Source of the DNA: Minisyncoccota bacterium
GTDB taxonomy: Bacteria > Patescibacteriota > Minisyncoccia > Phycocordibacterales > UBA9973
Length of the DNA: 64,000 bases
Direction of reading: 5' to 3'
Assembly (NCBI GenBank): GCA_041666045.1
Contig: JBAYHR010000001.1
Coordinates: forward strand, 187,391 to 251,390
How positions within the stretch are numbered: position 1 is the first letter of the stretch; every line of letters starts with the position of its first letter. Position numbers and translations under genes: made by a program. Below the pieces are notes generated by a model. It did not search any database. It was not told the DNA's origin and saw only the letters and a list, made by a program, of their open reading frames with translations. This document shows positions 1,667 to 55,377 of this stretch, one piece after another.

Positions 1667-2058
1667 TGTTAGATAATTTCTCTAAAATAAACAAAACAAA
1701 AGGCAAGCTCCCTAGCTTGCCTTTTGCTATCATAAAAAATGATATTTTAGGAAAAGACTATTCCCTATCATTAGCATTTGTTGAAGAAAAAAAGTCTTGT
1801 GAGTTAAATACTCTATATAGAAAAAAAAATAAATCAACAAATATTTTATCTTTTCCTTTAGATAAAAATTTTGGTGAAATAATAATATGTCCATCGGTGG
1901 TAAAACGTGAATTGAAAAAATTTGATAAAACTTTTCCTGAATTATTGGGATTTTTAGTTATCCACGGAATGCTTCATTTGAAAGGTCTAAAGCATGGTAA
2001 AAAAATGGAAAAACTTGAAAAAAAATACTTGTCCCGTACTAAATTTTTGATTAAGTGA
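1666..2058 (+). CDS. ybeY: rRNA maturation endoribonuclease YbeY
   Basis: HGMLHLKGLKH metal-binding motif (H-x3-H-x5-H); ~130 aa; adjacent to rpsU. Confidence 0.8.
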   Translation: MLDNFSKINKTKGKLPSLPFAIIKNDILGKDYSLSLAFVEEKKSCELNTLYRKKNKSTNILSFPLDKNFGEIIICPSVVKRELKKFDKTFPELLGFLVIHGMLHLKGLKHGKKMEKLEKKYLSRTKFLIK

Positions 2059-2098
2059 TATAATAATAAGTATTAATAAATAAAATTTTAGTATCGGG

Positions 2099-3262
2099 AT
2101 GATCAAAAATATTTCTGTAGGAATAGATATAGGATCCACAACCACTAGAGTTGTTGTGGGAGAATTTTTTAAGGGAGAGAAAAATCCTAAGGTTATTGGT
2201 GTGGGCGAATATGAAACAAAAGGTATACGACATGGATATGTTGTTAATCTAATTGATGCAGTAAATTCAGTAAAAAATGCCGTAAGTATTGCAGAAAAAA
2301 GTTCTGGAATAAAAATTAGACGAGCGTTTATTTCAATAAATAGCATAACTTTACGAGGAGATATGAGTTCTGGTTTGGCTATAATTTCCAAAGCTAATGG
2401 TGAAGTAACTAACTTAGATATTAATAAAGCAATTGAAGACAGTGAAGCTAATTTAAGTTTAAATAATAAAAAAATTATCCACACATTCCCCGTCTCTTTT
2501 AAACTTGATGGTAAAGAAGTATTGGGTCAACCAGAAGGAATGTCTGGCACAAAACTTGAAGTTAAAACTCTTTTTGTTACATGCTTAAGCCAACATCTAG
2601 ACGATTTATTGGCTGTAATATCAGAAGCTGGAATAGAAACAATAGATGTAATTGCTTCTCCTATATCAGGAAGTCAGATTGCATTATCAAAAAGACAAAA
2701 AATTGTAGGATCAGCTTTAGTAAATATTGGATCTGAGACAGTATCTGTATCCGTTTTTGAAAATGGATCACTTATATCACTTCACGCATTCTCAATAGGT
2801 TCATCAGATATAACAAATGATCTTGCGTTGGGTTTCAAAATTCCTCTTGAAAAAGCAGAGAACTTTAAGCATGGAAATATAACACTTGATTACCCAAAGA
2901 AAAAATTAGATGAAATCATTGGTGCACGTCTTACAGACATATTTGAATTAATCGAAAATCATTTGAAAAAAATAAAAAGAAATGAACTTCTTCCTGCTGG
3001 CATTGTATTTATAGGCGGAGGTGCAAATACTCCTAGACTTGAAGAATTATCAAAAACGATACTAAAACTTCCATCAAAAATAGGAACAACTGAAATGTTT
3101 GGCAATATAAAAACAAAACTTCGCGATTCATCTTGGTTTACTGCTTTAGGTCTTATAACATCAGATAAAGACAACGATAATTATTCAAAAGGAGGTTTAT
3201 CAAATTTTTTTAGAGATTTAAAAAACACAATAAAATCAATAACTAAACAGCTTTTACCGTAA
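2099..3262 (+). CDS. ftsA: Cell division protein FtsA
   Basis: N-terminal VGIDIGSTTTRVVVGE actin-fold phosphate-1 motif; 387 aa; immediately upstream of ftsZ. Confidence 0.9.
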   Translation: MIKNISVGIDIGSTTTRVVVGEFFKGEKNPKVIGVGEYETKGIRHGYVVNLIDAVNSVKNAVSIAEKSSGIKIRRAFISINSITLRGDMSSGLAIISKANGEVTNLDINKAIEDSEANLSLNNKKIIHTFPVSFKLDGKEVLGQPEGMSGTKLEVKTLFVTCLSQHLDDLLAVISEAGIETIDVIASPISGSQIALSKRQKIVGSALVNIGSETVSVSVFENGSLISLHAFSIGSSDITNDLALGFKIPLEKAENFKHGNITLDYPKKKLDEIIGARLTDIFELIENHLKKIKRNELLPAGIVFIGGGANTPRLEELSKTILKLPSKIGTTEMFGNIKTKLRDSSWFTALGLITSDKDNDNYSKGGLSNFFRDLKNTIKSITKQLLP

Positions 3263-5868: not shown

Positions 5869-5907
5869 AATGTATATATTATAAACTAATTATTATTTTT
5901 GTAAATG

Positions 5908-8219: not shown

Positions 8220-8918
8220 ATGAAAATATTTAATAAAAAAATAATTATTTTAAGTTTTATCGTTGTTGCATTCTCCTTGTTAGGGTATTTGACAGTTTAT
8301 AATAAATTTTCTTCACCAAAGGAAAAGTTTGATACAAAATCTATTAATCAAAATCTGATAACTAAAGTGCCATCAGAGAGAGGCAGTACGATTACAAACG
8401 ATCCTCTTGACCCAAATGTTCTTACTTACACTTCATACAAGCTCGGAATACAATTCAGTTATTTAAAGGATGGTGGATTTAATAGTTCTTTTTTATTAAA
8501 ACCAAATGAAACTAATGATAAAATCGTTCTCGGACATGATAGTGTAATGATATTTAAAAAACTTCCCAGAGAAACAATAGAACAAACATTAAGGAGACTT
8601 TTGCCGGAACAACTTAAAAATGAAAATTGCTCTGTAATTACTGTATCTTCTTACACATCAAAATATGATTCCTATGCTATTTGGGACAAACGAGCCCCAT
8701 TACATCAAAGAGGTATTGATTCAAGGGATTATGTAGATAGTGACGGGATTTACCTTTCTAACGTTTGTAATCCTGCTATGGAACTGGATTTTATGATAGA
8801 GCCAAATTTTCCTGATACGATTTATTACATAAACCGATCTTCTCAAGATATTTCATATTGGGCGGATTCTGCACATACAAATCAATGGTGGCAAACAATA
8901 CATTTAATTGCTGATTAG
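8220..8918 (+). CDS. Hypothetical secreted/membrane-anchored protein
   Basis: N-terminal hydrophobic signal/anchor (IIILSFIVVAFSLLGYL); no domain recognised. Confidence 0.4.
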   Translation: MKIFNKKIIILSFIVVAFSLLGYLTVYNKFSSPKEKFDTKSINQNLITKVPSERGSTITNDPLDPNVLTYTSYKLGIQFSYLKDGGFNSSFLLKPNETNDKIVLGHDSVMIFKKLPRETIEQTLRRLLPEQLKNENCSVITVSSYTSKYDSYAIWDKRAPLHQRGIDSRDYVDSDGIYLSNVCNPAMELDFMIEPNFPDTIYYINRSSQDISYWADSAHTNQWWQTIHLIAD

Positions 8919-8938
8919 AAATTGTTTAATGATTGTCA

Positions 8939-11515: not shown

Positions 11516-11640
11516 CCATTTTTACTATTATATAAAGATAAAGAATTTTAAAAAGGTAACCACTATTTCTAAAAATAATTTAGAAAATTAATGCCTACCC
11601 TCTCACTTTCCTACCTCGTTCATGCCTCCCTTCCCGCATA

Positions 11641-11689
11641 GCAAGATTGCGTATGGACTGTCAACAATGACAGCCATACGCAATCTTGC
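11641..11689. repeat. 49-bp near-perfect palindrome (22-bp arms, 4-nt loop) in intergenic region
   Basis: gcaagattgcgtatggactgtca-acaa-tgacagccatacgcaatcttgc, one bulged base. No T-run follows, so it is not a canonical terminator. Confidence 0.6.
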
Positions 11690-11818
11690 GGTGGACTCTG
11701 TCCCCCGTGCCCCCAGCAAAAACAGTTTCAATCGTAAATTGAAACTGATAAAAATAAATTTAATTTATAAGAATGCACTACCCGAAATTAAATTAACTAA
11801 ATTAAACTTGCAACAACT

Positions 11819-13252: not shown

Positions 13253-13253
13253 A

Positions 13254-16200: not shown

Positions 16201-17084
16201 AGTTTTATTATATCGTAATTGTAACCTTGTCCGGAAACAGGTGTTGCTCCAACAATGTAAATATTACCTGATGCATCTTCAACCATATCGTTTACCTGAT
16301 CTATCCCTGTTGAACTATTCGAGCTTATAGAACCGAATCCCCAAGCACCTGTAGATTTATTAAAACTTTTACTGCACCATTTATAAGTTGTTGTGCCTGT
16401 TTGAAGTATGCCTGATACAGTTCCATTAGTACTACCAATGCTGATTTTAACTCCGGCATCGTTCAAGTTTGAAGAATGATTGTAACGACTTGCCCATTGC
16501 TGGGTTCCACTGCTGTTATATTTGATTGCCATTAAGTCAGTATTTGGAGTTGCATTATAACTGCTTCCGGTTATATAAACATCCCCGTTTGAATCAACTA
16601 CAATTTCTGCTCCTGAATCATAACTGCCTCCAGTTCCATTATAAGTTGACAGCCATTGCTGTGTACCGCTACTGTTGTATTTAATAGTGATAATATCGGC
16701 ATCGGTTGATGATGTAGTTACTGTTCCAGTAACATAGACATTTCCACTGCCATCAACATATAAACCTGCGCCAATATCCTGTCCGTTTGCACCACCGTTA
16801 TATTGTTGAATCCATTGCAATACTCCTGATGAATTATATTTGGCAGTAAGAATATCATAATTATTATTTCCGTTCATTGTTGCTCCTACTATATACACAT
16901 TGTTGCTACCATCGGTTTTGGTAACATTTTTATAAAAGAAGTTCTGCGAACCGTCTGTACTTGACCAGTCGGCGAATACTTTTAATTCGCTTTGCGAAAA
17001 AACTGTTTGAACAAAAGCCATAAGGCTTAAAAAGAAGCAAAATGCAATGCTTACTTTGATAGATTTTGTAATTGTTGTTTTCAT
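13254..17084 (-). CDS. Giant secreted SBBP beta-propeller-repeat protein with T9SS-type C-terminal sorting domain
   Basis: Signal peptide; many SBBP-like repeats (YN-SG-QW...Y-G---D-G-GL-VD-SGNVYVTG); C-terminal IYPNPSNGIYTLKAEF...ISVYNSMGQKLF...DGIYFVVV matches the Por_Secre_tail pattern. Confidence 0.75.
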   Translation of the reverse strand: MKTTITKSIKVSIAFCFFLSLMAFVQTVFSQSELKVFADWSSTDGSQNFFYKNVTKTDGSNNVYIVGATMNGNNNYDILTAKYNSSGVLQWIQQYNGGANGQDIGAGLYVDGSGNVYVTGTVTTSSTDADIITIKYNSSGTQQWLSTYNGTGGSYDSGAEIVVDSNGDVYITGSSYNATPNTDLMAIKYNSSGTQQWASRYNHSSNLNDAGVKISIGSTNGTVSGILQTGTTTYKWCSKSFNKSTGAWGFGSISSNSSTGIDQVNDMVEDASGNIYIVGATPVSGQGYNYDIIKLTSTLSLAWENTYNSGSNLDDIAKGIKVDASGNVYVTGYTTSSTEGKNITTIKYNSSGTQQWVETFNDSLDGDDEAYAMAIDTSGNIYVSGYFFTQIDSTDYYTMKYDASGNVIWTIHNDGENHLNDKVTNITIDNNQDIVVTGESETAPGEFEYYTIKYVEKDIITPTDYNGEDPLNSFSYYKNSGQIIDTDTNLVPDIKYYAKNSSPEFYIRKNSNSFVFAHVDTIISTTDTLHRIDVAFSKCNTNAKTYPLEETTEYMNYFLAHCSDGVTEIRGNKKLVTTELYPNIDLMYSSNQNGIKYYFIVKPGGDPTDIMMEYDGASSFNLDGTTNELTINSSIGSITYERPTVYQLETDNTVDTITGWTADWQTDSTYNYYQFNIGSYNTAKALIIQVDLGHTQQQQQIGNLDWSTYYGGSVPDGFHDIETDNDNQYSYITGFTSSNNFPPYNGLSSNYFHGDVDATILKFDNTGHRKFVTYYGGTSFDVGYSIFPDNTTGNIYVVGEASSTDFPIQPVNSQPSGAYVDSTSGGSFILELNPNGNNIIWNTYYSSSLFCSITGDNNNNLYIVGVGSVNNTPLDSLPGAYYNSTKGDGLITKFTKQGARLWATFFNTGTSSGNEITSVKTDNSDNVFITGTVSSNDMNVTNPGSGAYFDNAISGTSDAFIAKFNSSDAIVWSTYFGGSGDENGIALNISGSGNLLITGNTSSTNFPWYNPGSPAYCDTTLNGTSNTFISRFSNNGNRLWSTYYGNTDFNTGNDIIAMKYDYFFVVGSTRGLDTLSLSGAYNQDTIANSSNISDAYILGFTFSDNERIWATYFGGSENDFGNACTVSSNNRLYLVGGTSSMHYVTPAFPIVDLGNGAWIQWENASSNFSDGFIARFDLNSILYGIEENTINSKIPFIIYPNPSNGIYTLKAEFKEKENITISVYNSMGQKLFENNSNNLAGSFNKTINLTDYSDGIYFVVVNISGKNHMGKIIKQK

Positions 17085-17735
17085 AATTGATAATTTTTAG
17101 TTAATATAAGTTTAAAAAAAATTCAAAATTCCTTTTATGGCTTATAGTAGCGGAAATGATTAAAAGTTACCCAACAATTAAATTTTATTTTTTAAAACCT
17201 TTAAAATTTTACAAAAAAAAGGGCATGGGACATAACTGTATTCATACTGAGGCTCTCGCGAAGCCCACGTCACAAATAAGTATGCCCACGCCTTTGGCGT
17301 GAGCGTTATACTTATTATTCTAATGACGTTATAAATTTGCGAGATTCCAGTAAGAGAATAACAATAAACGCTACCAATATTTTTTAAAGAACGCATGTTA
17401 ACATTTTCATGTTTACTAAACAAAGTTACAATACTTTTATTATAATGACAAAATATTTAAAATATTTTGTTTTAAACCTAATTTTAACTTAAAAAAGGTA
17501 AAATTATCACTACTTTATAAATTCCATTAAAAAAGAGTTTGAAATTTTAAAAGGTAACCACTTTAATTCAAAGTTTATTTTATTTATATAACGTTTAAAG
17601 GGTTAAAAGTAATTCACATTCTCTTCAAATTGTCATCTGACAAGGCTTTTAGAAGGACGATAATAAATCATAAATCAGGGTGCAGAAAAGGTGTTTAATT
17701 AGGTGCAGAAATTTTTCCTTGATTTTTTCAATTTG

Positions 17736-17767
17736 CATAAAAAGAAAAGAGAGGCAACTGCCTCTCT
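17736..17767 (-). terminator. Intrinsic terminator (minus strand) immediately downstream of the tRNA-like element
   Basis: Perfect 8-bp stem agagaggc-aact-gcctctct followed on the minus strand by tttctttttat. Confidence 0.5.
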
Positions 17768-17774
17768 TTCAAGT

Positions 17775-17830
17775 ACCCCGGACCGGAATCGAACCGGTAC
17801 AGCCTTTGGGGCCACAGGATTTTAAGTCCT
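17775..17830 (-). ncRNA. tRNA-like element: 3' portion only (anticodon-like stem-loop cttaaaa, long variable region, canonical T-arm accgg-ttcgatt-ccggt, 3' acceptor-like ccgggg)
   Basis: Minus-strand reading aggacttaaaatcct...ggccccaaaggctgtaccggttcgattccggtccgggg. The T-loop is canonical, but no matching D-arm or 5' acceptor strand could be found upstream. Either a degenerate tRNA(Leu-TAA-like), a tRNA 3' fragment from an old integration, or an unusual ncRNA. Confidence 0.3.
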
Positions 17831-18125
17831 TTTGTATTTATTAATATAAATACGATACAGCCCATTGTTTCTATGTTTAGCGCAAAACGATACACCTCAT
17901 AAGGTGCAGTAGCAAGGTGCGGAAAATCTTATTTTCCACTCATTTTTTTAATTAATATTTCTAGTGTTTCTATACTAAGTTTGATATCATTTTTATATGA
18001 ATAAAGTTTCGTAAGCCAAATTGATAGGTCACCATTTCGTGCTAGCACGAGAAGTATACTAGAAGCCTTCCATTTTAGTGGCTTTTTATATGTTTAAGAA
18101 AACTTAAAAATGCTAGAATACAACT

Positions 18126-18890
18126 ATGACAGAAGAAATAAATATTCTTTTAAAGTTTAACAAGGAACTACATGATCTTGTAGATACTAAACTACAGCTT
18201 GATATTACTGATGGTGATAACAAGGCTTTTTTCACTGCGTTCGCAATGGGTAAAGCATTCAAGACAGATGAAGCCATTGGTCTTCTCTGCAGAAGCGGAT
18301 ATGGTGAGGATGCTTTTATGCTCGCTCGCACATTATTTGAATTAATGGTCACTACTGCTTATATTCTTCAAGATACTACTGAAGATCGTTTAACTCGGTA
18401 TGCAAATCACGACTGGGTTACCAGAAAACAAATGTATGACTATGTAGTTTCAAATGAATCCTTACTTGCTGGATTAAACAAAGAAATTAAATCTGGCAAC
18501 AGACCAGACACAGTTGCAGAAGTAGAAGCTGAATATAAAAAAGTGATGGATAAATACAAATACCAAAACGGTACTTGGTCTGACAAGAGTATCAAGGACA
18601 TGTCCGAATCAATCGAAAGACTCGATGCTTACAACACGGTTTACCGATTACAGTGTACTTTGGGTCATACAAACGCCAGAAGCATTAATGAATATGTGAA
18701 TGTTACCGAAGAAGGAACTATTTTAAATATCGGACCAAACTGGGATCTTGTAAAAAATACCTTAGTGATAACGTTTGACTGTTTCTTTCATATCACTCAA
18801 GAAGCAAATAGTAAGTTTGGATGGGGGCTAGAAGATACCTTAGAAGAAATATCGAAAAAATGGGCAGAAGAAGTTGGTAATTTAAAGTAA
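18126..18890 (+). CDS. Uncharacterised all-alpha protein, first gene of the DUF4238 operon; possible HEPN-like domain
   Basis: 254 aa. C-terminal region YRLQCTLGHTNARS fits an R-x6-H HEPN-type motif. Its stop is 4 nt before the next gene. Confidence 0.45.
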   Translation: MTEEINILLKFNKELHDLVDTKLQLDITDGDNKAFFTAFAMGKAFKTDEAIGLLCRSGYGEDAFMLARTLFELMVTTAYILQDTTEDRLTRYANHDWVTRKQMYDYVVSNESLLAGLNKEIKSGNRPDTVAEVEAEYKKVMDKYKYQNGTWSDKSIKDMSESIERLDAYNTVYRLQCTLGHTNARSINEYVNVTEEGTILNIGPNWDLVKNTLVITFDCFFHITQEANSKFGWGLEDTLEEISKKWAEEVGNLK

Positions 18891-18894
18891 AACA

Positions 18895-19863
18895 ATGACA
18901 AACAGTAAAAAACATCATCACTATATACCACAATTTTACATTAATGGATTTACTAATCACAAAGGTGAAGTTTTTGTTCTTGAACATTCAACAGGTAAGA
19001 TAAATAAGCAAAGTAAATACGGAACATTCCATAAATATAAATTTTATACAGTAGACTTTTCTAAACACAAAGAACGAGATCCCGAATCGGCTCAAAAAAT
19101 TAAAAAGGCTTTAGGTATAGAAAATGTAGACACAAGTAATGTAAAAAAATACCCCGATATGATAGAAGATTTGTTAGGTGATTCAGAGACTGTTTCTGCT
19201 CCTATAATTAAGAAGTTAATTGAGGGTAAACAAATCTCTTCGACAGAAAAAATTGAACTCTCGACTTTTATAGCACTAATGTACACAAAAACTCCATCCT
19301 TCCACAATTTTGCCTCTGAAATGGAAAAGCAAATGATGAACAAAAGTATAAAGAAACTATTTTTAGAAAAAGAAAAAGTAAAAGATCTTTATAATAAAAT
19401 GCTGGCAGAAGGCTATGAGGATAAAATTGATGTACAAGAACTTTTTAAACTTGTTGAAGAAGATAGATATAAAATTGAAATACCAAAAGAATTGACTATA
19501 CAAACGATGCTAATTGGAACAAGTGTTATAGATAGGATTTTGTATAACAAAACATGGTTGATAATGGAAGCACCTTCTACAACTAGTTTTATAACAAATG
19601 ATCAGCCGGTATTTATGAATCATCCCCTTGTGAATAAATATGGCCCATTTAGTGTTGGAGTTGGCACGTCAAAAGTAGAAATCATTTTTCCACTTTCTAA
19701 AGAGCTTTTATTGATTATGAAGGATACTCCAAAAGGAAATATGATTATGCATAAAAAAATTGATCGGACGAAAGTACGTGATTTAAATAAATTAATTTTT
19801 GCTCGCTCTGGCGATTATGTTATTGCTCGTGATTTTGCCTTAATAAAGAAATTAATGAAATAA
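18895..19863 (+). CDS. DUF4238-family protein (paralog 1)
   Basis: N-terminal HHHYIPQFYINGF matches the DUF4238 signature H-Y-h-P-Q-F-Y-L-x-x-F; internal SFITNDQPVF matches the family's SDNPV motif. 322 aa. Confidence 0.65.
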   Translation: MTNSKKHHHYIPQFYINGFTNHKGEVFVLEHSTGKINKQSKYGTFHKYKFYTVDFSKHKERDPESAQKIKKALGIENVDTSNVKKYPDMIEDLLGDSETVSAPIIKKLIEGKQISSTEKIELSTFIALMYTKTPSFHNFASEMEKQMMNKSIKKLFLEKEKVKDLYNKMLAEGYEDKIDVQELFKLVEEDRYKIEIPKELTIQTMLIGTSVIDRILYNKTWLIMEAPSTTSFITNDQPVFMNHPLVNKYGPFSVGVGTSKVEIIFPLSKELLLIMKDTPKGNMIMHKKIDRTKVRDLNKLIFARSGDYVIARDFALIKKLMK

Positions 19864-19865
19864 GT

Positions 19866-20939
19866 ATGAATACATTATTTTTAAAATTTAATATGTATAG
19901 AAACTATTCAGGTAAAAAATTCATGAATTATGTTTTTAGAAACCGTCTTGGTAAAACCATATGGACGACAAGATTGATTATTTTCATAATGAATATTCTA
20001 GACAGAAATCAGGTCTACGTAAATACTGGTGATGTAGATAATTTTGATCATTACGTACCACAATTATTACTTAACAGATGGAGAATCTCAGAAACAGGAG
20101 AAAACAAAAATAAAATATTCTTCTGGTCTAAAATAAATAAAACTATTAAACCTAAAAGTATTAAGAAGGTTGCAGGAGAAATAAATTGGGATACAAGTTC
20201 AGCTGATGGTAAACCAAGCGACTATATAAGTAAAAAACTATATGCGGAAGTTTTAGAACAAAAAGCTAGTTATATAATAAAATATGTAAATACTAATAAA
20301 ACCCCTGAATTAACTTTTTTAGAAGAATCTACTCTTTCAGTTTTTGTGGCTCATCAAATTATAAGAGTTCCTAATTTTAGAAAAACACTTAATAGATTTT
20401 TATCCTTGGGTTATTCTAAAGGGCTTATTTCAAAAGAAGAACTAGGAAGTAAAAAGGTATTAATAGAAAAAGTAGCAAAAAATACTATTAATATTACCTA
20501 CGATCAGTTAGATAAAGAAAAACCACTGTTTGTTTTAAAAGGAGCGAAACAACAAGAATCTCTTATATCGTTAGTTGTTGCAGATGATATAGCTGAAAAA
20601 ATTTACAGAACAAGGCATTTAAAATTTTTAGAAATATCTGAGGAATATGAAAATGAATTTGTTATTTCTGATAATCCGGTAGTTTTTCTAGATATGGGAA
20701 GAAAAACTATCTTAAATCATATACCATGGTGGGAGGTAGGAATAGAAAAATTTATAATCTTTATGCCAATTTCTCCTAAAAAAGCACTTCTATATTCACC
20801 AATAAAAGATGAACAGGATCTACCAATAAAAGAATTTATTGATTTATTAAATTTTGGACAATATACAAACTGTTCAGAAGGAGTATTTAGTAAAAAAGAA
20901 ACAATAATTCAAAAACATTTGAAATATTATGATTTGTAA
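19866..20939 (+). CDS. DUF4238-family protein (paralog 2, divergent)
   Basis: DHYVPQLLLNRW and FVISDNPVVFL motifs. Starts 3 nt after paralog 1's stop; an alternative start is ATG 19989 (MNILDRNQ). Confidence 0.6.
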   Translation: MNTLFLKFNMYRNYSGKKFMNYVFRNRLGKTIWTTRLIIFIMNILDRNQVYVNTGDVDNFDHYVPQLLLNRWRISETGENKNKIFFWSKINKTIKPKSIKKVAGEINWDTSSADGKPSDYISKKLYAEVLEQKASYIIKYVNTNKTPELTFLEESTLSVFVAHQIIRVPNFRKTLNRFLSLGYSKGLISKEELGSKKVLIEKVAKNTINITYDQLDKEKPLFVLKGAKQQESLISLVVADDIAEKIYRTRHLKFLEISEEYENEFVISDNPVVFLDMGRKTILNHIPWWEVGIEKFIIFMPISPKKALLYSPIKDEQDLPIKEFIDLLNFGQYTNCSEGVFSKKETIIQKHLKYYDL

Positions 20940-20985
20940 TATAGATTTATTTTGGTACAAAGAAAATTTTTAAAACTCTAAAAAG

Positions 20986-22800
20986 TTATTTACTTAACAA
21001 TTCAGTATTCCAAGAAGAAATTACTCCTTGTATATTTGCAACCCAGTCATCTGAATTATTATTATCATTTGTACTATTAGCAATTTTTTCAACCAATTCT
21101 TTTAAATAACTATGAGCAAAGTATTTTCCACCTTCTCTCATTACTCGTAGTGTTTTTAATAAACCAACAAATTGTGAAATTGTAATTGGGGCAATTTTTT
21201 GTCGACTACCTTTATAACCAATAGTATTTGCAATGTAAAAAGTTTCAGCACTATCAATATGGATTGATGGAGCAATGAATATACAATACGAATCATCATT
21301 ATTTTTTTCAAAATCTCGTAAATGTCGCATAACTGGCTGGCCTTCATTAAACCATTGATCACGTCCATTCAACATTGTAACTTCACAAATCATATTAAAA
21401 TTACTGTAATAACATTCAATATCAGCCATTCCCCCAGGAGCAGTTGAAGTTGGTTCATTATCATCACCAACTGGATAATTAGGCTTAATTTCCTTTGCAT
21501 CATTTAATGCATGAAGTCCCATAGTTGAAAGATACTCTAATAACAAAGGACGATTTTCTGCATTATATATATTTTCTAATTGATCAATATATTGAGTAAT
21601 TGAATCAATTGGTTGTGATTTTCTGTGGTTATCTTTCTCCTGTAAATCTTTACGTATAATTCTTAATTCTTCAATATATGAATTCAATTTAGTTTCAGAC
21701 ATCACAGAAATATCTTTAATTTTTTGGACAACTAGACCAAGTGTACCTTGTAATATTTTTATTTCATCATAAACTTCTATTGCTATTTTACTTAACTTTT
21801 CTTTTGTTAACCAAGGTAAAATCGGTAAACTATCATTGGACATATAATTAAGATAAGCATCTCTATCAGTAAACTCCTTAGCTTTATAAAACTCATTCTC
21901 AAACAATGCTTCAATCTCTGTGTGACGATTTGGCTCTAAGTCAACATAAAATCCATTACCACGAATACGAATAAACTTTGTTAAACGAAAATATCTAATA
22001 GCATTATCGCCATAATCTTTCAAATTCGTTAGTAATTTATTGATTTTAGTTTTTTCTCTTGTATTTAAAAAATTAATAGCAAAATTTAAACGAAAATTAT
22101 CACGAATTTTTTTACGTTCTTGTTTATTTTTATTTTTTTGCAAATCTCGTAATTCAATAATTTTATTTGCATAATTTTCAATATCAGTATATTTAACTAA
22201 TGAAGGAACAAAAAATGAAAATTCTCTTTTACTTAATCCGACTGGATTATTACCACGACTTGTTTCAAGTTCATTAACTTTACTTATTAATTTAAGCATT
22301 GCTACAAAAGGTACGACATTATAATCACCATTATTACTAAAATCATCATTGGCAGGATTTGGTATCTGCCATTTTATAAATGATTTTAGAAAAACATCAC
22401 CGGCATCTTTTTCACTCGCAATGAGTTTTTTGCCAAGATCGGTAATTTTGACTATCCCATTATCAATAAAAGCAAATCCAAACTTTGTAAGTGGATTAAT
22501 TGACTGACGACCTCTCATTGAAAAATCTTTATAATTTTTAATTTCAATAATACGATCGACGATTTGATCACTAATTTCATTATCAACATTATTAATTAGG
22601 TCAATAATTTCTCTTGGTAAGCGATTGTAAAACTGTTGGTTTCCAAAACCATACAATCTATCTTTAATTAAAATTTTTTGATATTTTTCTTGATTATCAT
22701 TATTCCATTCCTGATTTTCAAGTAACTGTAAAGAAATCAAAAAACTTCTTAATCTTTCAGGGTTTCTAACAGTTGTTGTAATTGACCATGCCTTTAACAT
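20986..22800 (-). CDS. Putative Type IIS restriction endonuclease (FokI/AlwI-family-like)
   Basis: 604 aa, directly downstream of and co-oriented with a fused double m6A MTase, as for FokI (~587 aa). Candidate acidic nuclease cluster GGMADIECYY...ICEVTML. No sequence-level confirmation was possible. Confidence 0.5.
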   Translation of the reverse strand: MLKAWSITTTVRNPERLRSFLISLQLLENQEWNNDNQEKYQKILIKDRLYGFGNQQFYNRLPREIIDLINNVDNEISDQIVDRIIEIKNYKDFSMRGRQSINPLTKFGFAFIDNGIVKITDLGKKLIASEKDAGDVFLKSFIKWQIPNPANDDFSNNGDYNVVPFVAMLKLISKVNELETSRGNNPVGLSKREFSFFVPSLVKYTDIENYANKIIELRDLQKNKNKQERKKIRDNFRLNFAINFLNTREKTKINKLLTNLKDYGDNAIRYFRLTKFIRIRGNGFYVDLEPNRHTEIEALFENEFYKAKEFTDRDAYLNYMSNDSLPILPWLTKEKLSKIAIEVYDEIKILQGTLGLVVQKIKDISVMSETKLNSYIEELRIIRKDLQEKDNHRKSQPIDSITQYIDQLENIYNAENRPLLLEYLSTMGLHALNDAKEIKPNYPVGDDNEPTSTAPGGMADIECYYSNFNMICEVTMLNGRDQWFNEGQPVMRHLRDFEKNNDDSYCIFIAPSIHIDSAETFYIANTIGYKGSRQKIAPITISQFVGLLKTLRVMREGGKYFAHSYLKELVEKIANSTNDNNNSDDWVANIQGVISSWNTELLSK

Positions 22801-22820
22801 GGTCTAATTATACCATAAAA

Positions 22821-24827
22821 TCAATAATTCGTAATCAGAACTTCTATTGTTATATTGTTTTTTGCAGTAGAATGATAATTTGAATTTTTATAATTATAAT
22901 TTAATTTATTAATTTTGAAATTATTTTTTTTAACCCAATTTTTCATTATTTCATTGGTTTTACCCTTATGCTCCAAAACATTTGATAGAGCAAAGCGAAC
23001 TCCCTTTTTATTTAAGCGTGTAAGCAAAGAATATAAATCTTTTTCATCTTGTTCAGTCCAACCACCCAATTCATTATAACTTGCTAGCCCCAATAAATAA
23101 GGTGGGTCTAAATAAACAAAATCATCTTTTTGTAAATTTTCTTTTTCTATTTCTCTAAAGTCTTGAGTTTTGAAAACTATCTTTTTTTCATTAGAAATTT
23201 GATTAAAGCTTGCAACATTTTTTCTTAAACTACCATTATAATCTCGCTTGCCGACCGGTAAATTAAAGCCTCCATTACTATTAAAACGAATTTGATTATT
23301 GAATGAGTAAAGAATCAACACTAACAATAGATCTATTCTCGTTTTGTTTTTATTAAATTCATTACGTAATTTCAAAAAAGAATTCTTATTATATTGCCCA
23401 AGCCCCACAGAACTATCGGCATTATAGTGAGAATACCCTTTGATATAACTTTGACTTAATTCAAATTTATCAATTATATTGATAATTCCTTGATTTAAAT
23501 CTTCAAAATTATTATTCTGAATTAGTTTTAATAAATTAACAACGTATCTATTTTTTTCTAAACAAACAATATTTTTAGCTGTAGCATTAATACCAACATT
23601 TGCACCACCAGAAAATACGTCATAAAATACATTTATTTCGTTTGGAAATAATTTTACGATTTGTGGTAATAATTTATGTTTTCCACCAGTATAATTAAGA
23701 GGAGATTTTACAAAGCCGTTTTGAACAGGATTGTTTTTTGAAGCAATAACTAATTTTTGAGTTCTTTTTGCAACATTAACTTTACAAAGAAAAATCCTCT
23801 CTTTTAAATTGTCCTTGCTAGATTTTCCAGTTGTAAATTGTTTAAAATCAGTTTCAAAAATACGAACATCTCCTTTTCTTTTTAACGCCGATAAAATTTC
23901 ATGGTCACTAATTCGCGATTGAGATCGTGCATTTCCTGATGTTCCCATATCATTATATGAAACTAAAATATATTTTGCATTAATATTATCTATCAAATCA
24001 CAAAAAGCAACACCGGCTGATTTCATATTGTATTTGCTTTTAATATGAGAACGATCAATTTTTTTTGCAACTCCAAAAACCTTTTCTTTTTTCCATGTAG
24101 CTACATTTTCAAGTAAATGATATGCGTCAGAGTATTGACGAGAGTTGTATGGTGGATCAATATAAACAATATCAGCTTTTATCTTTTTTACCAATTCGTT
24201 GGCGTCACTTTTATAAATTTCTGCGGAATATTTAGAATTTTTTATATCAAGTGGAAGTAAAAATAGTTTTTTATCGGGGATATCAATTTTTCTATAAGCA
24301 TCATAGTGTCCAACAGTATTAGCGATTTTATCAAAAGCATAGATTAAAGAAGTTAATAAATATGATTTTTCTCGTTTTGTAATTATTTTTTTTTCAAACA
24401 ATTTTTCAATATCATCCCTAATTACTCCTATTTTTTTTGAATTAGTTGTATTAAAATAGGTATTAGAAAAATTATTTGAAAAATAATTATTGCTATATTT
24501 TTTTAAATCAAGTTTATTGTAAAAATTTAATCGTTCTTTAAGTTTATCTTCTCTTATTATATCTCTACCGAAAAATGCATTATAGATATAATTATTTGAA
24601 TCGAGAATATCATTAACGATTATTTTTGAACGACTATGGAAATGATTTGCAACCGTACCAGTACCAGCAAAGATATCAGCAAATGATTCAAATTGTATGT
24701 TTTCAGTTTCTAAAATATTATCAATAAAACTAAGTAACTTAGTTTTTGAGCCAAGATAACGTCTTTGATTAATAGAAATTATTTTATTTCCAAAGTATGC
24801 ATCGTTCATATATAAATAGTATATCAC
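22821..24827 (-). CDS. Fused tandem N6-adenine DNA methyltransferase (two D12/Dam-class domains, M.FokI-like; Type IIS modification enzyme)
   Basis: Domain 1 has RRYLGSKTKLL, FAGTGTV and VYIDPPYNS. Domain 2 has NYTGGKHKLL, FSGGANVG and VYLDPPYLL. 668 aa. Confidence 0.85.
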   Translation of the reverse strand: MIYYLYMNDAYFGNKIISINQRRYLGSKTKLLSFIDNILETENIQFESFADIFAGTGTVANHFHSRSKIIVNDILDSNNYIYNAFFGRDIIREDKLKERLNFYNKLDLKKYSNNYFSNNFSNTYFNTTNSKKIGVIRDDIEKLFEKKIITKREKSYLLTSLIYAFDKIANTVGHYDAYRKIDIPDKKLFLLPLDIKNSKYSAEIYKSDANELVKKIKADIVYIDPPYNSRQYSDAYHLLENVATWKKEKVFGVAKKIDRSHIKSKYNMKSAGVAFCDLIDNINAKYILVSYNDMGTSGNARSQSRISDHEILSALKRKGDVRIFETDFKQFTTGKSSKDNLKERIFLCKVNVAKRTQKLVIASKNNPVQNGFVKSPLNYTGGKHKLLPQIVKLFPNEINVFYDVFSGGANVGINATAKNIVCLEKNRYVVNLLKLIQNNNFEDLNQGIINIIDKFELSQSYIKGYSHYNADSSVGLGQYNKNSFLKLRNEFNKNKTRIDLLLVLILYSFNNQIRFNSNGGFNLPVGKRDYNGSLRKNVASFNQISNEKKIVFKTQDFREIEKENLQKDDFVYLDPPYLLGLASYNELGGWTEQDEKDLYSLLTRLNKKGVRFALSNVLEHKGKTNEIMKNWVKKNNFKINKLNYNYKNSNYHSTAKNNITIEVLITNY

Positions 24828-24994
24828 ATTATATTAAAAGCAATAAATAAATACTGTTTTAATTTAAAAAAAGTATCAAATGATTTATAAAAATAACATT
24901 ATAAATTGTTTAAGAAATTAAATTTTTATAATCAAATTCTTTTAAAACAATAATTAAAATAAAATATATACAGGTATTTTTTATATATTTTTAA

Positions 24995-25030
24995 TAAAAA
25001 AACGCCGATCAAAAATCAGCGTTTTTTGTA
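24995..25030 (-). terminator. Intrinsic terminator after the 161-aa membrane protein gene (bidirectional A/T runs)
   Basis: Imperfect hairpin cgccgat-caaaa-atcagcg flanked by an A-run and a T-run. Confidence 0.45.
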
Positions 25031-25033
25031 AAT

Positions 25034-25519
25034 TTATTTTTCTAAATCTTTTATTTCTTTATCCAGCTCTTTATTGTATTTTTTACTATCTTTAAAGAAA
25101 ATAAAAAGAGCATACATAAGACAAATTATGCCTAAACTAGAAAAAATATAAAAAATAAAATCATTGTCTATATAAAAACCATAGACAATAAATCCTAATA
25201 GGATTAATGCAACACCTAACCAAATAAAGAATAAAATTCTTTTCTCTTCTTTTATAAAAGAAAAATACTCTAAATACATTAATTTAATTTTTTTAATATA
25301 TTTATTTTCATAAATCTCTAACATCAGACAAAGAAAATAAAATAAAAAAAACATTCCTATTGTGCCCATAAATACCATAATAACAGTATTTATAATACTT
25401 TTTTCAAAGCAATTTGCCACTATGGCAATTACTAAAAAAAATATACCAAGAAAAAAACTTACTGCAATCTTCTGCTCTTTTCTTTTTAATTCAGATTCAA
25501 CTTTTACAATGTCTATCAT
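25034..25519 (-). CDS. Hypothetical 4-TM membrane protein
   Basis: 161 aa with four hydrophobic helices. Paired with the upstream 65-aa ORF, 11-nt gap. Confidence 0.45.
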   Translation of the reverse strand: MIDIVKVESELKRKEQKIAVSFFLGIFFLVIAIVANCFEKSIINTVIMVFMGTIGMFFLFYFLCLMLEIYENKYIKKIKLMYLEYFSFIKEEKRILFFIWLGVALILLGFIVYGFYIDNDFIFYIFSSLGIICLMYALFIFFKDSKKYNKELDKEIKDLEK

Positions 25520-25530
25520 AATAATTAGAT

Positions 25531-25728
25531 TTAAGGGGTTTTTATTTTTGATCTTTTCTCTTCAATTATAGTTTTTTTTGTTTTTTCATTTATAATAAAA
25601 TTATATTTTTTTTTGATATTCTCAGGTATATACATTTTATTAAATGCTGCTTTTCTTGCTTCAAATAAAACATCTTCAATTGAATTTAATGGTTCAACTT
25701 CTATTGGTTTAATTTTTTTATTTTTCAT
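25531..25728 (-). CDS. Hypothetical small soluble protein, partner of the 4-TM protein
   Basis: 65-aa, Lys-rich ORF. Confidence 0.35.
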   Translation of the reverse strand: MKNKKIKPIEVEPLNSIEDVLFEARKAAFNKMYIPENIKKKYNFIINEKTKKTIIEEKRSKIKTP

Positions 25729-27922: not shown

Positions 27923-29023
27923 ATGAAGATACTTTCGATAGAAACATCCTGTGACGAAACTGGAATAAGTGTTTTAGAAATAAAGGGTGGGAAAAAGCCA
28001 GTTTTTGAAATTCTCGCTAATAGTTTAAATTCACAAATAAAAATCCATGCACCATTTGGTGGTGTATTCCCAATGCTCGCTAAACGAGAACACATTAAAA
28101 ATTTACCTATATTACTTGAGAGAACTTTAAAAAAGGCTAAGTTAAATAAACCTGATCCCATTAGAAGTAAAGACCCACTGCGAGCCCTCGCGACCTCTAA
28201 CGGGATAAATTTAATAGCTGTAACTTCTGGCCCGGGATTAGAACCAGCTCTTTGGACAGGTATAGTTTTCGCAAAAGAACTTTCTAAAAAATGGAACGTT
28301 CCAGTAATTCCAATAAATCATATGGAAGGACACATACTTTCTGTGTTTGGAAAAAATAAAGGTAAATTCCAAATTCCTAAAATAAACTTCCCTATTCTTT
28401 CCCTTCTTGTTTCTGGAGGACATACAGAACTTGTATTATCCAAAGACTGGATGAAATATAAAATAATCGGAGAGACATTGGACGACGCAGCTGGAGAAGC
28501 TTTTGACAAAGTTGCAAGAATGCTCGAACTTCCATATCCAGGTGGACCAGAGATATCTCGCTTGGCAGAGCAAGAGAGAAAAACAAAAAAAATACCAAAT
28601 TTTTCTCTTCCCCGCCCAATGATATATACTAAAAATTTTGATTTTTCTTTTTCAGGATTAAAAACTGCTGTACTTTATTTGATTAGAAAAATTGGAAAAC
28701 TAGACGATAAAATAAAAAAAGAAATTGCATGTGAATTTGAAAATGCAGTTGTTGAAACCTTAGTTCATAAAACAAAGAAAGCTATTGAAAAATATAATAT
28801 CAAAACTGTAATAGTGGCAGGTGGAGTATCTTCAAATAAACATTTACGAAAAGAAATAAAAAAAATGATTGGAAGTAATCAAACTTTAATTTTTCCAGAA
28901 AAAAATCTTTCTACTGATAATTCAATTATGATAGGAATAGTTGGATACTTTAAATTTTTAGCAAAAAATGGAAAAATTCCTAAATCACCTAAAATAAAAG
29001 CAGATGGAAATCTACGATTCTAA
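27923..29023 (+). CDS. tsaD: tRNA N6-adenosine threonylcarbamoyltransferase TsaD (Kae1/OSGEP family)
   Basis: MKILSIETSCDETGISVL N-terminus; HMEGH and SGGHTEL metal-binding motifs; GVSSN. Carries an in-frame palindromic-element insertion at 28156-28205. Confidence 0.9.
   Translation: MKILSIETSCDETGISVLEIKGGKKPVFEILANSLNSQIKIHAPFGGVFPMLAKREHIKNLPILLERTLKKAKLNKPDPIRSKDPLRALATSNGINLIAVTSGPGLEPALWTGIVFAKELSKKWNVPVIPINHMEGHILSVFGKNKGKFQIPKINFPILSLLVSGGHTELVLSKDWMKYKIIGETLDDAAGEAFDKVARMLELPYPGGPEISRLAEQERKTKKIPNFSLPRPMIYTKNFDFSFSGLKTAVLYLIRKIGKLDDKIKKEIACEFENAVVETLVHKTKKAIEKYNIKTVIVAGGVSSNKHLRKEIKKMIGSNQTLIFPEKNLSTDNSIMIGIVGYFKFLAKNGKIPKSPKIKADGNLRF
28156..28205. repeat. TIR-bounded palindromic element inserted in-frame in tsaD
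   Basis: tcccattagaag ... cactgcgagccctcgcgacc ... tctaacggga. GC-rich core with internal hairpin gcgag-cc-ctcgc. Encodes the extra TsaD loop PIRSKDPLRALATSNG. Confidence 0.65.
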
Positions 29024-34217: not shown

Positions 34218-34475
34218 TTAAAAAGGAAGTTTATTCCCTAATGTTTTTATTTGATTTAAACTCGCTCCTGAATCCTTAATAAAAGTTTGTATATTTTCTA
34301 CATAAGGCTGAAGGAAATAAAAGGAACCTACACCAATACCAATAATAATCATCCAATACATAAAACGCAAAAAAGATGTAACCTTTTGTGAACGTCTGAT
34401 ATGCCTAAGCATTTTATTATTTTGATCAGCAAGTTCATATGTATCTCGTAACAATTGTTTTGATTCAGGATCCAT
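34218..34475 (-). CDS. Hypothetical small membrane protein
   Basis: 85 aa with one TM segment. Confidence 0.35.
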   Translation of the reverse strand: MDPESKQLLRDTYELADQNNKMLRHIRRSQKVTSFLRFMYWMIIIGIGVGSFYFLQPYVENIQTFIKDSGASLNQIKTLGNKLPF

Positions 34476-34619
34476 CCCATTAAAAATTTTAACTAATAAT
34501 ATTTAATCTTTAAACAAAGTCCCATGAATTTTTAACGGGACAGGTAGGAGTATTTTAGCATAGACAAATAAAAAAGCCAATTTTAAAAATTAGCTTTTTT
34601 ATGTTAGATTATTGATATT

Positions 34620-53839: not shown

Positions 53840-54775
53840 CTATGATTCCCAAACTGCAGTGTTAGCTAATGATATGAGCCGATCATTGCTTTTTTCCACT
53901 AAACAAAGCTCCCCTTGTTTAACTTCTCCTTTAAAATCTTTCATAGCATCTCTGAGCGCACAGCCGAGAGACAAAGACGAGGAATCTATCGCATATGAAG
54001 TTAAAATCACAAAAAGTGGATTATCGCTTAAAACTTTTTTCACCCCCGCCAAAAGCTTTGGTAAACTTTCTTCTATTTTCCAAGTCTCACCTTTTGGTCC
54101 TCTGCCAAACTTTGGCGGATCCATTATTACTGCATCGTATTTATTTCCTCTTTTTGCTTCACGTTCTAAAAATTTTAAAACATCATCACAAATAATTCTC
54201 ATAGGCATTTTTTCTAATCCTGACAATATCTGATTTTCTTTTGCTATAGATAAACTTTGCTTTGAAGCATCAAGATGAGTTACCTCTGCTCCAGCACGCA
54301 AAGCAAACAAACTTGCAACACCTGTGTAGCCAAATAAATTTAAAAATTTAATTGGTCTTTTTTCTTTCTTTATTTTACTTTCTATAAAATCCCAATGACT
54401 TGCCTGCTCTGGAAAAAAACCAAAATGTCTAAAGGGGGTTGGGGAAACAAAAAATTTAATCCCATTAGAGGCGGAAGCACACTGCGAGCCCTCGTGGCCT
54501 CTAACAGGACAAGTATCTCCATATGACATAATCCACTTTTCAGGAATATCCGAATTAATCTTCCATCCACCTTTAGCTCCAGTCTTAGAACTCCAAAATT
54601 TTCCATCCGCTTTCTCCCATTCACTTTTATTTAAAGTCTTTTTCCAAACAGCATCTTCAAAAGGTCTAATAAAAGTATATTTTCCAAATCTTTCTAGTCT
54701 TTCACCCTCTCCAGTATCAAGTATTTCATAATCAATCCAATTCTCTGGAGTAAAAATTTTTATTTCATTTTTCAT
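53840..54775 (-). CDS. Class I SAM-dependent rRNA methyltransferase (RlmI/RlmK-like)
   Basis: LNLFGYTGVASL and VIMDPPKFGRG (DPPxF) motifs. Carries an in-frame palindromic-element insertion. Confidence 0.6.
   Translation of the reverse strand: MKNEIKIFTPENWIDYEILDTGEGERLERFGKYTFIRPFEDAVWKKTLNKSEWEKADGKFWSSKTGAKGGWKINSDIPEKWIMSYGDTCPVRGHEGSQCASASNGIKFFVSPTPFRHFGFFPEQASHWDFIESKIKKEKRPIKFLNLFGYTGVASLFALRAGAEVTHLDASKQSLSIAKENQILSGLEKMPMRIICDDVLKFLEREAKRGNKYDAVIMDPPKFGRGPKGETWKIEESLPKLLAGVKKVLSDNPLFVILTSYAIDSSSLSLGCALRDAMKDFKGEVKQGELCLVEKSNDRLISLANTAVWES
54460..54509. repeat. TIR-bounded palindromic element inserted in-frame in the rlmI-like gene
   Basis: tcccattagagg...cactgcgagccctcgtggcc...tctaacagga. 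~90% identical to the tsaD copy and the same 50-bp length. Confidence 0.65.
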
Positions 54776-54777
54776 AT

Positions 54778-55377
54778 TTATATATTACCACGTAAAACTT
54801 CTATTTCACCTTTTTTATTAATCTTTATTAAAGTTGATGGCTTTGATTTTAATGTTCCACCTGATAAGTAAAAATCTACATTATTCCCAATCCCGTTAGA
54901 AGCCTCCCTCGCAAGCATGCGAGTGTTACGGTCACCTTTGGGAGACCTGCTTCTAACGGGACCGAAATATTCTTTTGCTTGTTTAATATTTTCAGCTGGC
55001 TTTAACCCTTCAGGATTTGCTGAAGGAGCAACTAATGGCCCAGTCTTTTTAAGTATTTCTACCAAACTCTTTTTTGCAGGTAATCTAAAAGCTATATTAT
55101 TTAAAATAACACTCACTTTCCCCGACCAAACTTTTTCTAGCATTCTCCTATTCGCGCGAATTAGCCTATTAGAAATACCAAACTTTTCTAAATCCTTAAT
55201 AGAAGAAATTAAAACTATCATTTTTTTCTTCTTATCTCTATTTTTTATTTTATATATTCTATTTATAGCCTTGCGAGAAAAAGCACTTCCAACTAAACCA
55301 TACAAAGTATCTGTCGGCATTATTCCTATTCCATCATTTTTAAGAATCTTTATTATTTCGTTTTCTTTATCTTCCAT
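54778..55377 (-). CDS. tsaC: L-threonylcarbamoyladenylate synthase (YrdC/TsaC family)
   Basis: IMPTDTLYGL and APSANPEG motifs; 199 aa. Carries an in-frame palindromic-element insertion. Confidence 0.7.
   Translation of the reverse strand: MEDKENEIIKILKNDGIGIMPTDTLYGLVGSAFSRKAINRIYKIKNRDKKKKMIVLISSIKDLEKFGISNRLIRANRRMLEKVWSGKVSVILNNIAFRLPAKKSLVEILKKTGPLVAPSANPEGLKPAENIKQAKEYFGPVRSRSPKGDRNTRMLAREASNGIGNNVDFYLSGGTLKSKPSTLIKINKKGEIEVLRGNI
54891..54961. repeat. TIR-bounded palindromic element (71 bp) inserted in-frame in tsaC
   Basis: Perfect 12-bp TIRs tcccgttagaag / cttctaacggga. Internal hairpin ctcgca-agca-tgcgag and a cctttggga motif. Confidence 0.7.

Follow-up and report, generated by a model that had tools for sequence, protein, structure and literature searches.

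What a GC-rich palindrome of 50 bp represents inside the intact open reading frame (ORF) of tsaD is the question raised by this locus, which lies in a 64-kb stretch of a Minisyncoccota bacterium genome (contig JBAYHR010000001.1, positions 187,391 to 251,390 of the forward strand; hereafter the window). A sequence-only reading of the window had reported four such segments with related inverted ends, three of them in frame inside tsaD, tsaC, and a gene for an RlmI-like methyltransferase, and had proposed that they are copies of one DNA-level palindromic unit. All four were recovered where that reading had placed them, and the analysis described below indicates that they are very probably copies of a non-autonomous DNA transposon representing a new superfamily of MITEs (miniature inverted-repeat transposable elements). 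This superfamily is distinguished by ends that are shared across phyla, by subfamilies adapted to coding sequence, and by a class of copies located on start codons.

The window holds six copies rather than the four first counted, with one further copy at the start of an 85-aa ORF and another, with variant ends, at the start of ftsA (Table 1). The copies in tsaD and the methyltransferase gene are each 50 bp and have in common the 15-mer cactgcgagccctcg, as had been reported. The inverted ends of the tsaC copy are indeed perfect, although they extend over 13 bp and not over 12 bp. The interior GC content of the three genic copies is 0.58 to 0.67 versus approximately 0.31 for the window, and the host ORFs, which match TsaD, Sua5/YrdC (TsaC), and an RlmI-like S-adenosylmethionine methyltransferase, are intact, both in agreement with the sequence-only reading. 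That reading had also called the host genes essential; RlmI is not known to be so. The pattern TCCCRTTARA-N28-55-TYTAAYGGGA has four matches in the window versus 0.00 in 100 dinucleotide shuffles, and the claimed terminal similarity therefore stands out from a shuffled background. The methyltransferase copy escapes this gapped pattern through a single mismatch (AGGA). By itself, the 10-mer does not reach significance, with 11 matches at no more than one mismatch versus 5.9 expected in the window, and all good 10-mer matches fall in inverted pairs 50 to 71 bp apart.

Table 1. Element copies in the window and the corresponding empty sites in relatives. L-labels denote loci or relatives' DNA, and P-labels denote orthologous proteins. 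A slash in the last column marks the point of insertion.
Copy	Position	Strand	Element and flank	Host and effect	Empty site (relatives; added length; sequence or protein evidence)
tsaD	28156..28205	+	50 bp	tsaD 27923-29023 (+); with 4 flanking bp adds 54 nt = 18 aa (D-PIRSKDPLRALATSNG-I)	L122-L124; +54 nt; protein-level absence in nearest orthologues P0002, P0003
RlmI-like methyltransferase	54460..54513	+	50 bp (54460-54509); non-duplicated flank CAAG (54510-13), CTTG on coding strand	gene 53840-54775 (-); adds 54 nt = 18 aa (TCPVRGHEGSQCASASNG)	L125; +54 nt; ...aaagac/attaaa...
tsaC/Sua5	54891..54961		71 bp; coding-strand flanks TCGG/TTGG	gene 54778-55377 (-); adds 75 nt = 25 aa	L125; +75 nt; ...tattttggtaataat...
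ybeY start codon	1597..1666	+	AT-rich, 66 bp (1601-1666) + CTTG flank (1597-1600)	between A and TG of ybeY start	L122; +70 nt; ...aaatagt/ATGTTGG...
ftsA start codon (variant ends)	2028..2099	+	CTTG + TCCCGTACTAAA...TTTAGTATCGGGA (2032-2099)	ends on ftsA start at 2099	L122; +72 nt; ...gaaaaat/ATGATCAG...
85-aa ORF start codon	34475..34544	-	AT-rich, 66 bp (34475-34540) + CCTG flank (34541-44, minus strand)	ORF 34218-34475 (-); between A and TG of its start	L122-L124; +70 nt; TTGGCT-17 nt-TAAAAT-actcct-ATGAAT

The same ends recur far beyond the window. The sequence-only reading had left open whether a genome-wide search would reveal further copies, and a scan of one genome per species with the pattern TCCCRTTAGA-N28-55-TCTAAYGGGA, whose counts represent a sample, recovered at least 120 loci. 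Among the matches listed, approximately 74 loci are from the candidate phyla radiation (CPR)/Patescibacteria, 13 are from Omnitrophota, 13 from Planctomycetota, and 8 from other phyla, and 12 are unclassified, wherein taxa are assigned by record title and many labels of metagenome-assembled genomes are approximate. By our own estimate, which assumes equal base frequencies, approximately 60 matches are expected by chance in the 596 Gb covered. The enrichment is real because matches arising by chance would be expected chiefly among the large and common phyla, of which the list contains almost none. The element family is widespread in CPR bacteria, Omnitrophota, and Planctomycetota. The window itself belongs to a metagenomic contig of 265 kb, the proteins of which carry the NCBI label Candidatus Paceibacterota (CPR/Patescibacteria). 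Phage carriage is rare (7 matches in 2.9 million viral contigs). One copy is present on a 1.1-kb contig binned as Nanoarchaeota (L113, JBBSXY010000071.1), which is probably a binning error and otherwise would be the sole archaeal occurrence.

The loci carry approximately 135 to 141 copies of 45 to 75 bp, together with longer copies of 100 to 170 bp, for a total range in element length of 45 to 170 bp, and the elements have no coding capacity of their own. The conserved outer ends span only 10 bp, TCCCGTTAGA...TCTAACGGGA (TCCCRTTAGA and TCTAAYGGGA). The next three positions vary yet remain complementary (AGC/GCT, GAC/GTC, AAT/ATT, CCT/AGG), giving ends of approximately 13 bp in more than 130 copies. 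Interiors are unrelated between subfamilies, and the 50-bp and 71-bp types of the window recur in other genomes. Sister families with the altered ends CCCCGTTAGA...TCTAACGGGG and TCCCGTACTAAA...TTTAGTATCGGGA are present at L017 (5455-5555), L023 (5908-6009), and L047 (4983-5085), as well as at the ftsA start in the window, and the superfamily is therefore broader than the pattern searched.

The flanks and the sites of these copies bear the marks of transposition. A perfect 4-bp direct repeat flanks 80 of the 141 copies, compared with 0 to 3 in shifted controls and approximately 0.55 expected by chance, and a 5-bp repeat flanks only 3 of the 141. The duplications vary in sequence (TGAA, TTGA, TAAA, TGAG, and others). 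Each of the six window sites lacks the element in relatives with 86 to 93% identity in their host proteins (L122-L125), and the inserted length at these sites is always that of the element plus 4 bp. Insertions have also been independent: the 50-bp subfamily occupies another, N-terminal site in the methyltransferase orthologues P0131 and P0182, TsaC orthologues carry either the 50-bp or the 71-bp subfamily at the same YFG/.../IG site, and a pristine 50-bp copy, flanked by a perfect TAGA duplication, is located in the same loop of a TsaD orthologue that is approximately 62% identical (L133). TTGA, which the protein context ID...ID suggests as the duplication at the tsaD site, was ruled out by the L133 DNA. 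Nested element-in-element composites occur in five loci. Composites of 156 to 171 bp, in which the outer element retains a TGAA or TTCA duplication, were seen at L013 (4620-4789), L015 (3211-3381), L034 (1659-1828), L035 (1965-2134), L071 (7140-7295), and L103 (412-581).

The copies thus have the characteristics by which MITEs are recognized, being short and noncoding, with shared inverted ends, a duplication of fixed length, and a presence/absence polymorphism. The earlier proposal of a DNA-level mobile palindromic unit that is tolerated in frame is borne out by the 4-bp duplications, the empty sites, and the independent insertions. In the mechanism we propose, an enzyme supplied in trans would recognize the 10- to 13-bp ends, and insertion, which occurs with a 4-bp stagger, adds the element plus 4 bp, the latter usually being a duplicate of the target.

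One class of copies, which is AT-rich, is found at start codons, precisely between their first two bases. This class, which does not figure in the sequence-only reading, is the more unusual feature of the family. The copy at 1601 to 1666 had been described as intergenic, but it ends exactly on the start codon of ybeY, wherein the final A of the element is the A of the ATG at position 1666. The copies at ftsA and at the 85-aa ORF belong to the same class. Among the copies with perfect duplications, 35 of 74 lie exactly on a start codon (...NTGNN-element-TGNN...) versus 1.5 expected for the same 4-mers at the same loci, and the NTGNN 5-mer itself is start-like only approximately 21% of the time. 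Start codons were called by ORF criteria, and the three window cases are backed by the gene calls of relatives. When 73 copies with longer flanks are sorted by position, 35 are on a start codon, 26 are intergenic or elsewhere, 9 are inside an ORF, and 3 are on a stop codon; stop codons were rejected as a second preferred target on the basis of this last count.

At these sites the terminal A of the element and the duplicated TG rebuild an ATG, also where the original start was GTG or TTG (L082, L108, and L097). The consequences for the reading frame depend on element length. Copies with a length of 2 mod 3 yield an in-frame N-terminal extension from the retained upstream start. Those with a length of 0 mod 3 place the TAA of the right end in frame, 4 nt before the new ATG, and those with a length of 1 mod 3 form a GGA-TGA that overlaps the ATG when the duplication starts with TGA. 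One of these three outcomes is found in 29 of 42 copies versus 13.8 ± 2.7 with shuffled interiors (maximum 22 in 1000 trials). Moreover, start-codon copies are directional, with a single orientation relative to the gene. Of the 42 copies, 25 have on their sense strand a G-rich box (usually CGGGA) able to pair with the left end, and none has its complement. Several Omnitrophota copies carry a Shine-Dalgarno-like GGAGG approximately 11 nt before the rebuilt ATG. A −10-like box is located 4 to 8 nt upstream of 23 of 62 colonized starts versus 163 of 715 control starts, and the layout of the empty site at the 85-aa ORF looks like the promoter of a leaderless mRNA.

From these features we propose that translation from the upstream start would either fuse in frame, stop at the TAA of the right end, or stop at the overlapping ATGA. 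Pairing of the internal CGGGA box with the left end, together with GGAGG in some Omnitrophota copies, would keep the new start usable. Expression of the host gene would then be preserved by fusion, by termination-reinitiation, by a freed 3′ arm, or by the element's own Shine-Dalgarno-like motif. The enrichment statistics compare surviving copies and not insertion events, and the start-codon bias may be due either to active targeting or to the survival of the least harmful insertions in very compact genomes. Separately, all six intergenic copies with a TTGA duplication (L010, L016, L036, L051, L054, and L072) read gaTTGA-element-TTGAC, which reflects either a target preference of approximately 7 bp (GATTGAC) or insertion into −35 promoter boxes that were later rebuilt.

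We considered whether start-codon copies might function mainly as RNA, wherein a mobile 5′-leader hairpin with two alternative folds controls translation and transposition serves only for its spread. The strict orientation of the CGGGA box, the GGAGG motif of several Omnitrophota copies, the enriched continuity of the upstream frame, and the conservation of ends across phyla are all consistent with such a role. However, simple selection against gene-silencing copies would be expected to yield each of these features equally well. The ends of the AT-rich CPR class pair through G-U in the sense RNA, and this property was dropped as independent evidence: the comparison of sense G-U with antisense A.C pairing derives from one uniformly oriented subfamily and is contradicted by the tsaD copy.

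Structure prediction also speaks to this explanation. When folded as single-stranded DNA and compared with shuffles, the tsaC copy has a z-score of −7.2 and forms a 13-bp stem with inner hairpins, and the AT-rich copies give −3.1 (ybeY), −4.1 (ftsA), and −3.3 (85-aa ORF). Intact copies are thus much more stably folded than shuffles, and the z-scores are closer to zero for the copies of tsaD (−1.8) and the methyltransferase gene (−1.0), whose ends are mismatched, with those of tsaD having decayed. Across the family, the interiors of AT-rich copies are no more structured than expected (mean z approximately −0.1), which argues against a primary role as RNA. Interiors that are GC-rich have a mean z of −1.3, with 31% below −2, and two inner hairpins are formed in several subfamilies. 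For the 71-bp subfamily, helices were compared sequence by sequence because the MAFFT alignment was structurally inconsistent, and this revealed double changes that maintain pairing: CGCCC/GGGCG versus CTCCC/GGGAG, and TCGCA/TGCGA versus TCTCG/CGAGA, TGCCG/CGGCA, and TGTCC/GGACA. The pairing of inner hairpins reflects either selection on a single-stranded DNA or RNA form or the correction of imperfect palindromes by template switching in replication.

Other observations also disfavor a primary role as RNA. The window yields only five tRNAs with Rfam 15 at the gathering threshold, and permissive Rfam scans of two element regions gave matches at chance level only. Start-codon copies precede unrelated genes with no common theme, and genic copies occur in both orientations. 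We therefore regard a principal function as regulatory RNA as unlikely, whereas the start-codon class may have such a role as a layer added to transposition.

Copies located inside genes obey a different constraint, which is imposed by the ends of the element. Two phases are open, T/CCC/GTT/AGA ... TCT/AAC/GGG/A and xTC/CCG/TTA/GA. ... CTA/ACG/GGA (slashes separate codons), and the third is closed by TCC/CGT/TAG and ..TC/TAA. An open frame that extends for at least 50 codons to either side runs through 21 copies. In 19 of the 21, the length is 2 mod 3, such that the element plus 4 bp is divisible by 3; the first open phase is used 15 times, the second 4 times, and the closed phase never. Stop codons are rare in genic copies as a consequence of their GC-rich interiors. 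According to the sequence-only reading, the genic copies are translated in different frames and strands. The first part of this claim did not hold, as all three genic copies of the window share one phase (T/CCY/RTT/AGA ... TCT/AAY/GGG/A) and read P-[VI]-R ... S-N-G-I. The second part did, given that the core has the same orientation on the + strand and the tsaD and methyltransferase genes run in opposite directions. The same core DNA is consequently read as ...DPLRALA... in TsaD and as ...HEGSQCA... in the methyltransferase, and SKDPLRALATSNGINLIAVTSGPGLEPALWTGIVFAK is an example of a peptide from the predicted translation of an insert.

From these codon-level patterns, we infer that the genic inserts are translated as extra loops of 18 to 25 residues in TsaD, TsaC, and the methyltransferase. 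The rule on length and stop codons is the main argument for inserts being translated rather than removed. An AlphaFold model of TsaD (mean predicted local distance difference test score, pLDDT, of 77) has an insert loop with pLDDT below 50 at residues 77 to 88, between a helix (50-71) and a strand (97-102), and this region varies in length among orthologues. The surviving copies show that persistence within a gene requires a length that, with the 4 bp added, is divisible by 3, as well as a phase that avoids the TAG and TAA of the ends.

A contrasting possibility is that the elements are removed or skipped during expression, either as protein-spliced mini-introns whose stem joins the exon ends or as bypass elements like those of T4 gene 60 and the mitochondrial 'byps'. 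The 13-bp terminal stem would juxtapose both junctions, two copies are 50 nt, similar to the 50-nt gap of gene 60, and the start-codon copies of the window have an ATG without a Shine-Dalgarno-like motif directly behind a hairpin, which would be hard to translate. Removal would lift any constraint on length and stop codons, yet the 19 frame-compatible copies are also stop-free, and avoidance of the closed phase is complete. Furthermore, where stop-containing AT-rich subfamilies were seen within open frames, they were N-terminal fusions at start codons, with none lying deep in an ORF, and insertion in two orientations would yield different RNAs. Removal or skipping is thus very improbable. Next to no probability attaches to ancestral or convergent protein loops (a P-V-R...S-N-G module), chance palindromes, or terminators, because, despite the P[VI]R...SNG peptide ends in three proteins and the recurrence of the tsaC and tsaD sites in distant orthologues, ortholog alignment of the kind the sequence-only reading had suggested finds the inserts missing from the nearest orthologues (including P0122, a methyltransferase of 293 aa versus 311), identical ends are present in noncoding copies full of stops, opposite DNA orientations encode different interior peptides, 4-bp duplications flank the copies, and shuffles produce no matches.

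The sites in tsaC and tsaD resemble hot spots at which insertion is tolerated, wherein permissive loops also fit the target preference. The presence of two copies in genes of the t6A pathway had been pointed out earlier, and no link to this pathway was found; the family occupies many unrelated genes. In two relatives (L122, ~10215-10240, and L123, ~1745-1765), the element-free tsaD loop holds a short perfect hairpin that reads either CGCTATG-CAAGA-CATAGCG or TGCGAGG-CAAGA-CCTCGCA, with compensatory differences between the two stems. This hairpin is similar to the core of the 50-bp element and may represent either a copy that has decayed or an independent small palindrome. Other in-frame inserts of 20 to 40 aa are found at different sites in the TsaD orthologues P0003, P0104, and P0106 (alignment A1, columns 234-270; for example, ...SQADEP...) and in the methyltransferase orthologues P0124, P0126, P0127, P0131, P0134, and P0168 (for example, ...SRVLGLGPDQLENFPNSS...). 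These lack the PVR...SNG signature, and CPR proteins may host further families of inserted elements.

Several observations weigh against transposition as the explanation for the copies. None of the six window copies retains a perfect duplication, their flanks being degenerate or replaced, and four of the six have a one-sided CTTG or CCTG that is not predicted by plain cut-and-fill. The conservation of the ends across phyla is unusually strict for an insertion-sequence family, and the compensatory inner hairpins of some GC-rich subfamilies hint at selection on a single-stranded fold, a trait not required of a double-stranded DNA element that is purely selfish. With respect to a mobilizing enzyme, there is no transposase among the window ORFs (Pfam scans found no DDE transposase), and the ORFs enclosed by end pairs at a spacing of 1 to 3 kb in L017, L041, L047, and L103 represent ordinary housekeeping genes. 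An all-versus-all BLASTP comparison of 555 ORFs from the at least 120 loci gave housekeeping clusters only, with no shared mobilizer. Overall, within the window and the sampled loci to which the search was confined, no autonomous partner was found, either between distant end pairs or as a gene shared by loci. Ends that appear unpaired in L111 and L127 are those of further short copies. A large serine recombinase encoded in the window was rejected as the mobilizer, as it would not make inverted-repeat ends with 4-bp duplications.

The recurrent flank is not peculiar to the window. A one-sided flank that does not derive from the target is present in four window copies and in approximately 20 copies from other CPR genomes, and it reads CTTG (18 cases) or CCTG (5 cases). 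In start-codon copies, the CTTG or CCTG is always on the upstream side relative to the gene, where it displaces the old ATG. The empty sites lack CTTG, and the total insertion at flanked copies is still the element plus 4 bp. By analogy with piggyBac transposition, we hypothesize that the 4-nt flank of the donor is carried over on a 5′ overhang. Replication would then leave one daughter duplex with the flank of the donor on one side and the sequence of the target on the other. Such carry-over, if true, would explain the recurrent one-sided CTTG.

Bacterial MITEs, such as Correia/CREE of Neisseria, RUP and BOX of pneumococcus, and Nezha of cyanobacteria, are short, noncoding, multicopy elements with inverted-repeat ends and a fixed-length duplication. 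They also are polymorphic between relatives, form hairpins, and sometimes carry promoter or translation signals or reside inside ORFs, all of which applies to the elements described here. In contrast to other MITEs, the present ends are kept across at least three phyla with unrelated interiors, the elements are as short as 45 to 50 bp, the duplication is 4 bp and not TA, approximately half of the intact copies are on start codons, and the hosts include very small CPR genomes. No insertion sequence is known as a partner of these elements.

The sequence-only reading had likened the segments to Rickettsia palindromic elements, which reportedly are approximately 100 to 150 bp and restricted to Rickettsia. 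The resemblance in in-frame behavior holds: the Rickettsia elements are also palindromic, lie in frame in protein-coding genes, including housekeeping genes, add translated surface segments, and have no known mobilizer. Membership in that family is not supported, because the present elements, compared by description only, are 45 to 170 bp, reside in CPR, Omnitrophota, and Planctomycetota hosts, and have clear ends of 10 to 13 bp with 4-bp duplications. No counterpart of the start-codon class is known among the Rickettsia elements.

The ends of piggyBac elements read TTAA-CCCTAGAAAG..., and IS1380 elements have 'CC' ends and a 4- to 5-bp duplication. Similarities to these systems include the 4-bp duplication and ends of the form (T)CCC with TAGAA, and one-sided CTTG would fit flank carry-over. 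Nevertheless, the present target is not TTAA as for piggyBac, no such transposase is near the copies, and the end resemblance is short and could be due to chance, so a possible relation to IS1380/piggyBac is offered as a lead only. A more specific proposal is that insertion is mechanistically aimed at gene starts, for example at the downstream edge of the RNA-polymerase open complex of leaderless genes or at some other cue for the start site. The elements would then be mobile translation-start cassettes that rebuild the ATG, moved by a piggyBac/IS1380-like enzyme that carries the donor flank, in which an anti-sequestering hairpin, sometimes with GGAGG, couples or fuses the old start to the new one. 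We consider this proposal doubtful; if true, the elements would be the first start-codon-specific transposon family in bacteria.

Integron attC sites, REP, and PATE are likewise imperfect palindromes of 50 to 140 nt with conserved ends and a variable center, and are thought to act as folded single strands. None of these three creates a 4-bp duplication. An identity with attC, which occurs in arrays beside an integrase, was rejected, given that attC has the form RYYYAAC...GTTRRRY and the order here is reversed (GTTAGA forms part of the 5′ arm, TCTAAC of the 3′ arm), and that the copies are dispersed singly in genes and flanked by duplications. An identity with IS200/IS605-type REP/PATE elements, which have neither inverted-repeat ends nor a target duplication, was rejected as well: the majority of copies are flanked by perfect 4-bp duplications that vary in sequence, and CTTG is missing from the empty sites. 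The CTTG-flanked subset is only superficially like IS200/IS605 elements, which insert 3′ of a fixed tetranucleotide. We found no paper describing the element family, with most subscription journals and ISfinder outside the scope of the search, and a literature search with the end sequence returned primer-like coincidences only.

For annotation, the inserts add 18 to 25 residues to the proteins predicted from many CPR genes and may explain part of the length variation among CPR orthologues (TsaD, 345-424 aa), and the elements create false N-terminal extensions or apparently 'missing' start signals. With the 20-base end signature, the family can be masked or catalogued in metagenomes. Loops that accept arbitrary peptides are marked by the hot spots in TsaC and TsaD, and the start-codon copies naturally test the extent to which translation initiation can tolerate, or exploit, the insertion of a hairpin, wherein leaderless and coupled initiation are both represented. 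The occurrence of shared ends across phyla, with no visible transposase in genomes of approximately 1 Mb that hold few insertion sequences, raises the question of what moves the family.

Two neighboring features of the window were also noted. A genomic island of approximately 19 kb (5900-25600), in which GC content falls to 0.225, is absent from the syntenic L122, where a thioredoxin-reductase-like gene is followed almost directly by an NTP-transferase gene. The island encodes tRNA-Ser and tRNA-Glu (5907-6156), the large serine recombinase (6092-7816), three proteins with type IX secretion sorting domains (8939-17084), a DUF5677 protein, two DUF4238 proteins, and an AlwI-like restriction enzyme with a D12-class methyltransferase (20986-24827). 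Finally, in the leucyl-tRNA synthetase encoded at 49796 to 52732 (-), the editing domain is immediately followed by a NUDIX hydrolase domain (residues 376-498), which is an unusual fusion or insertion.

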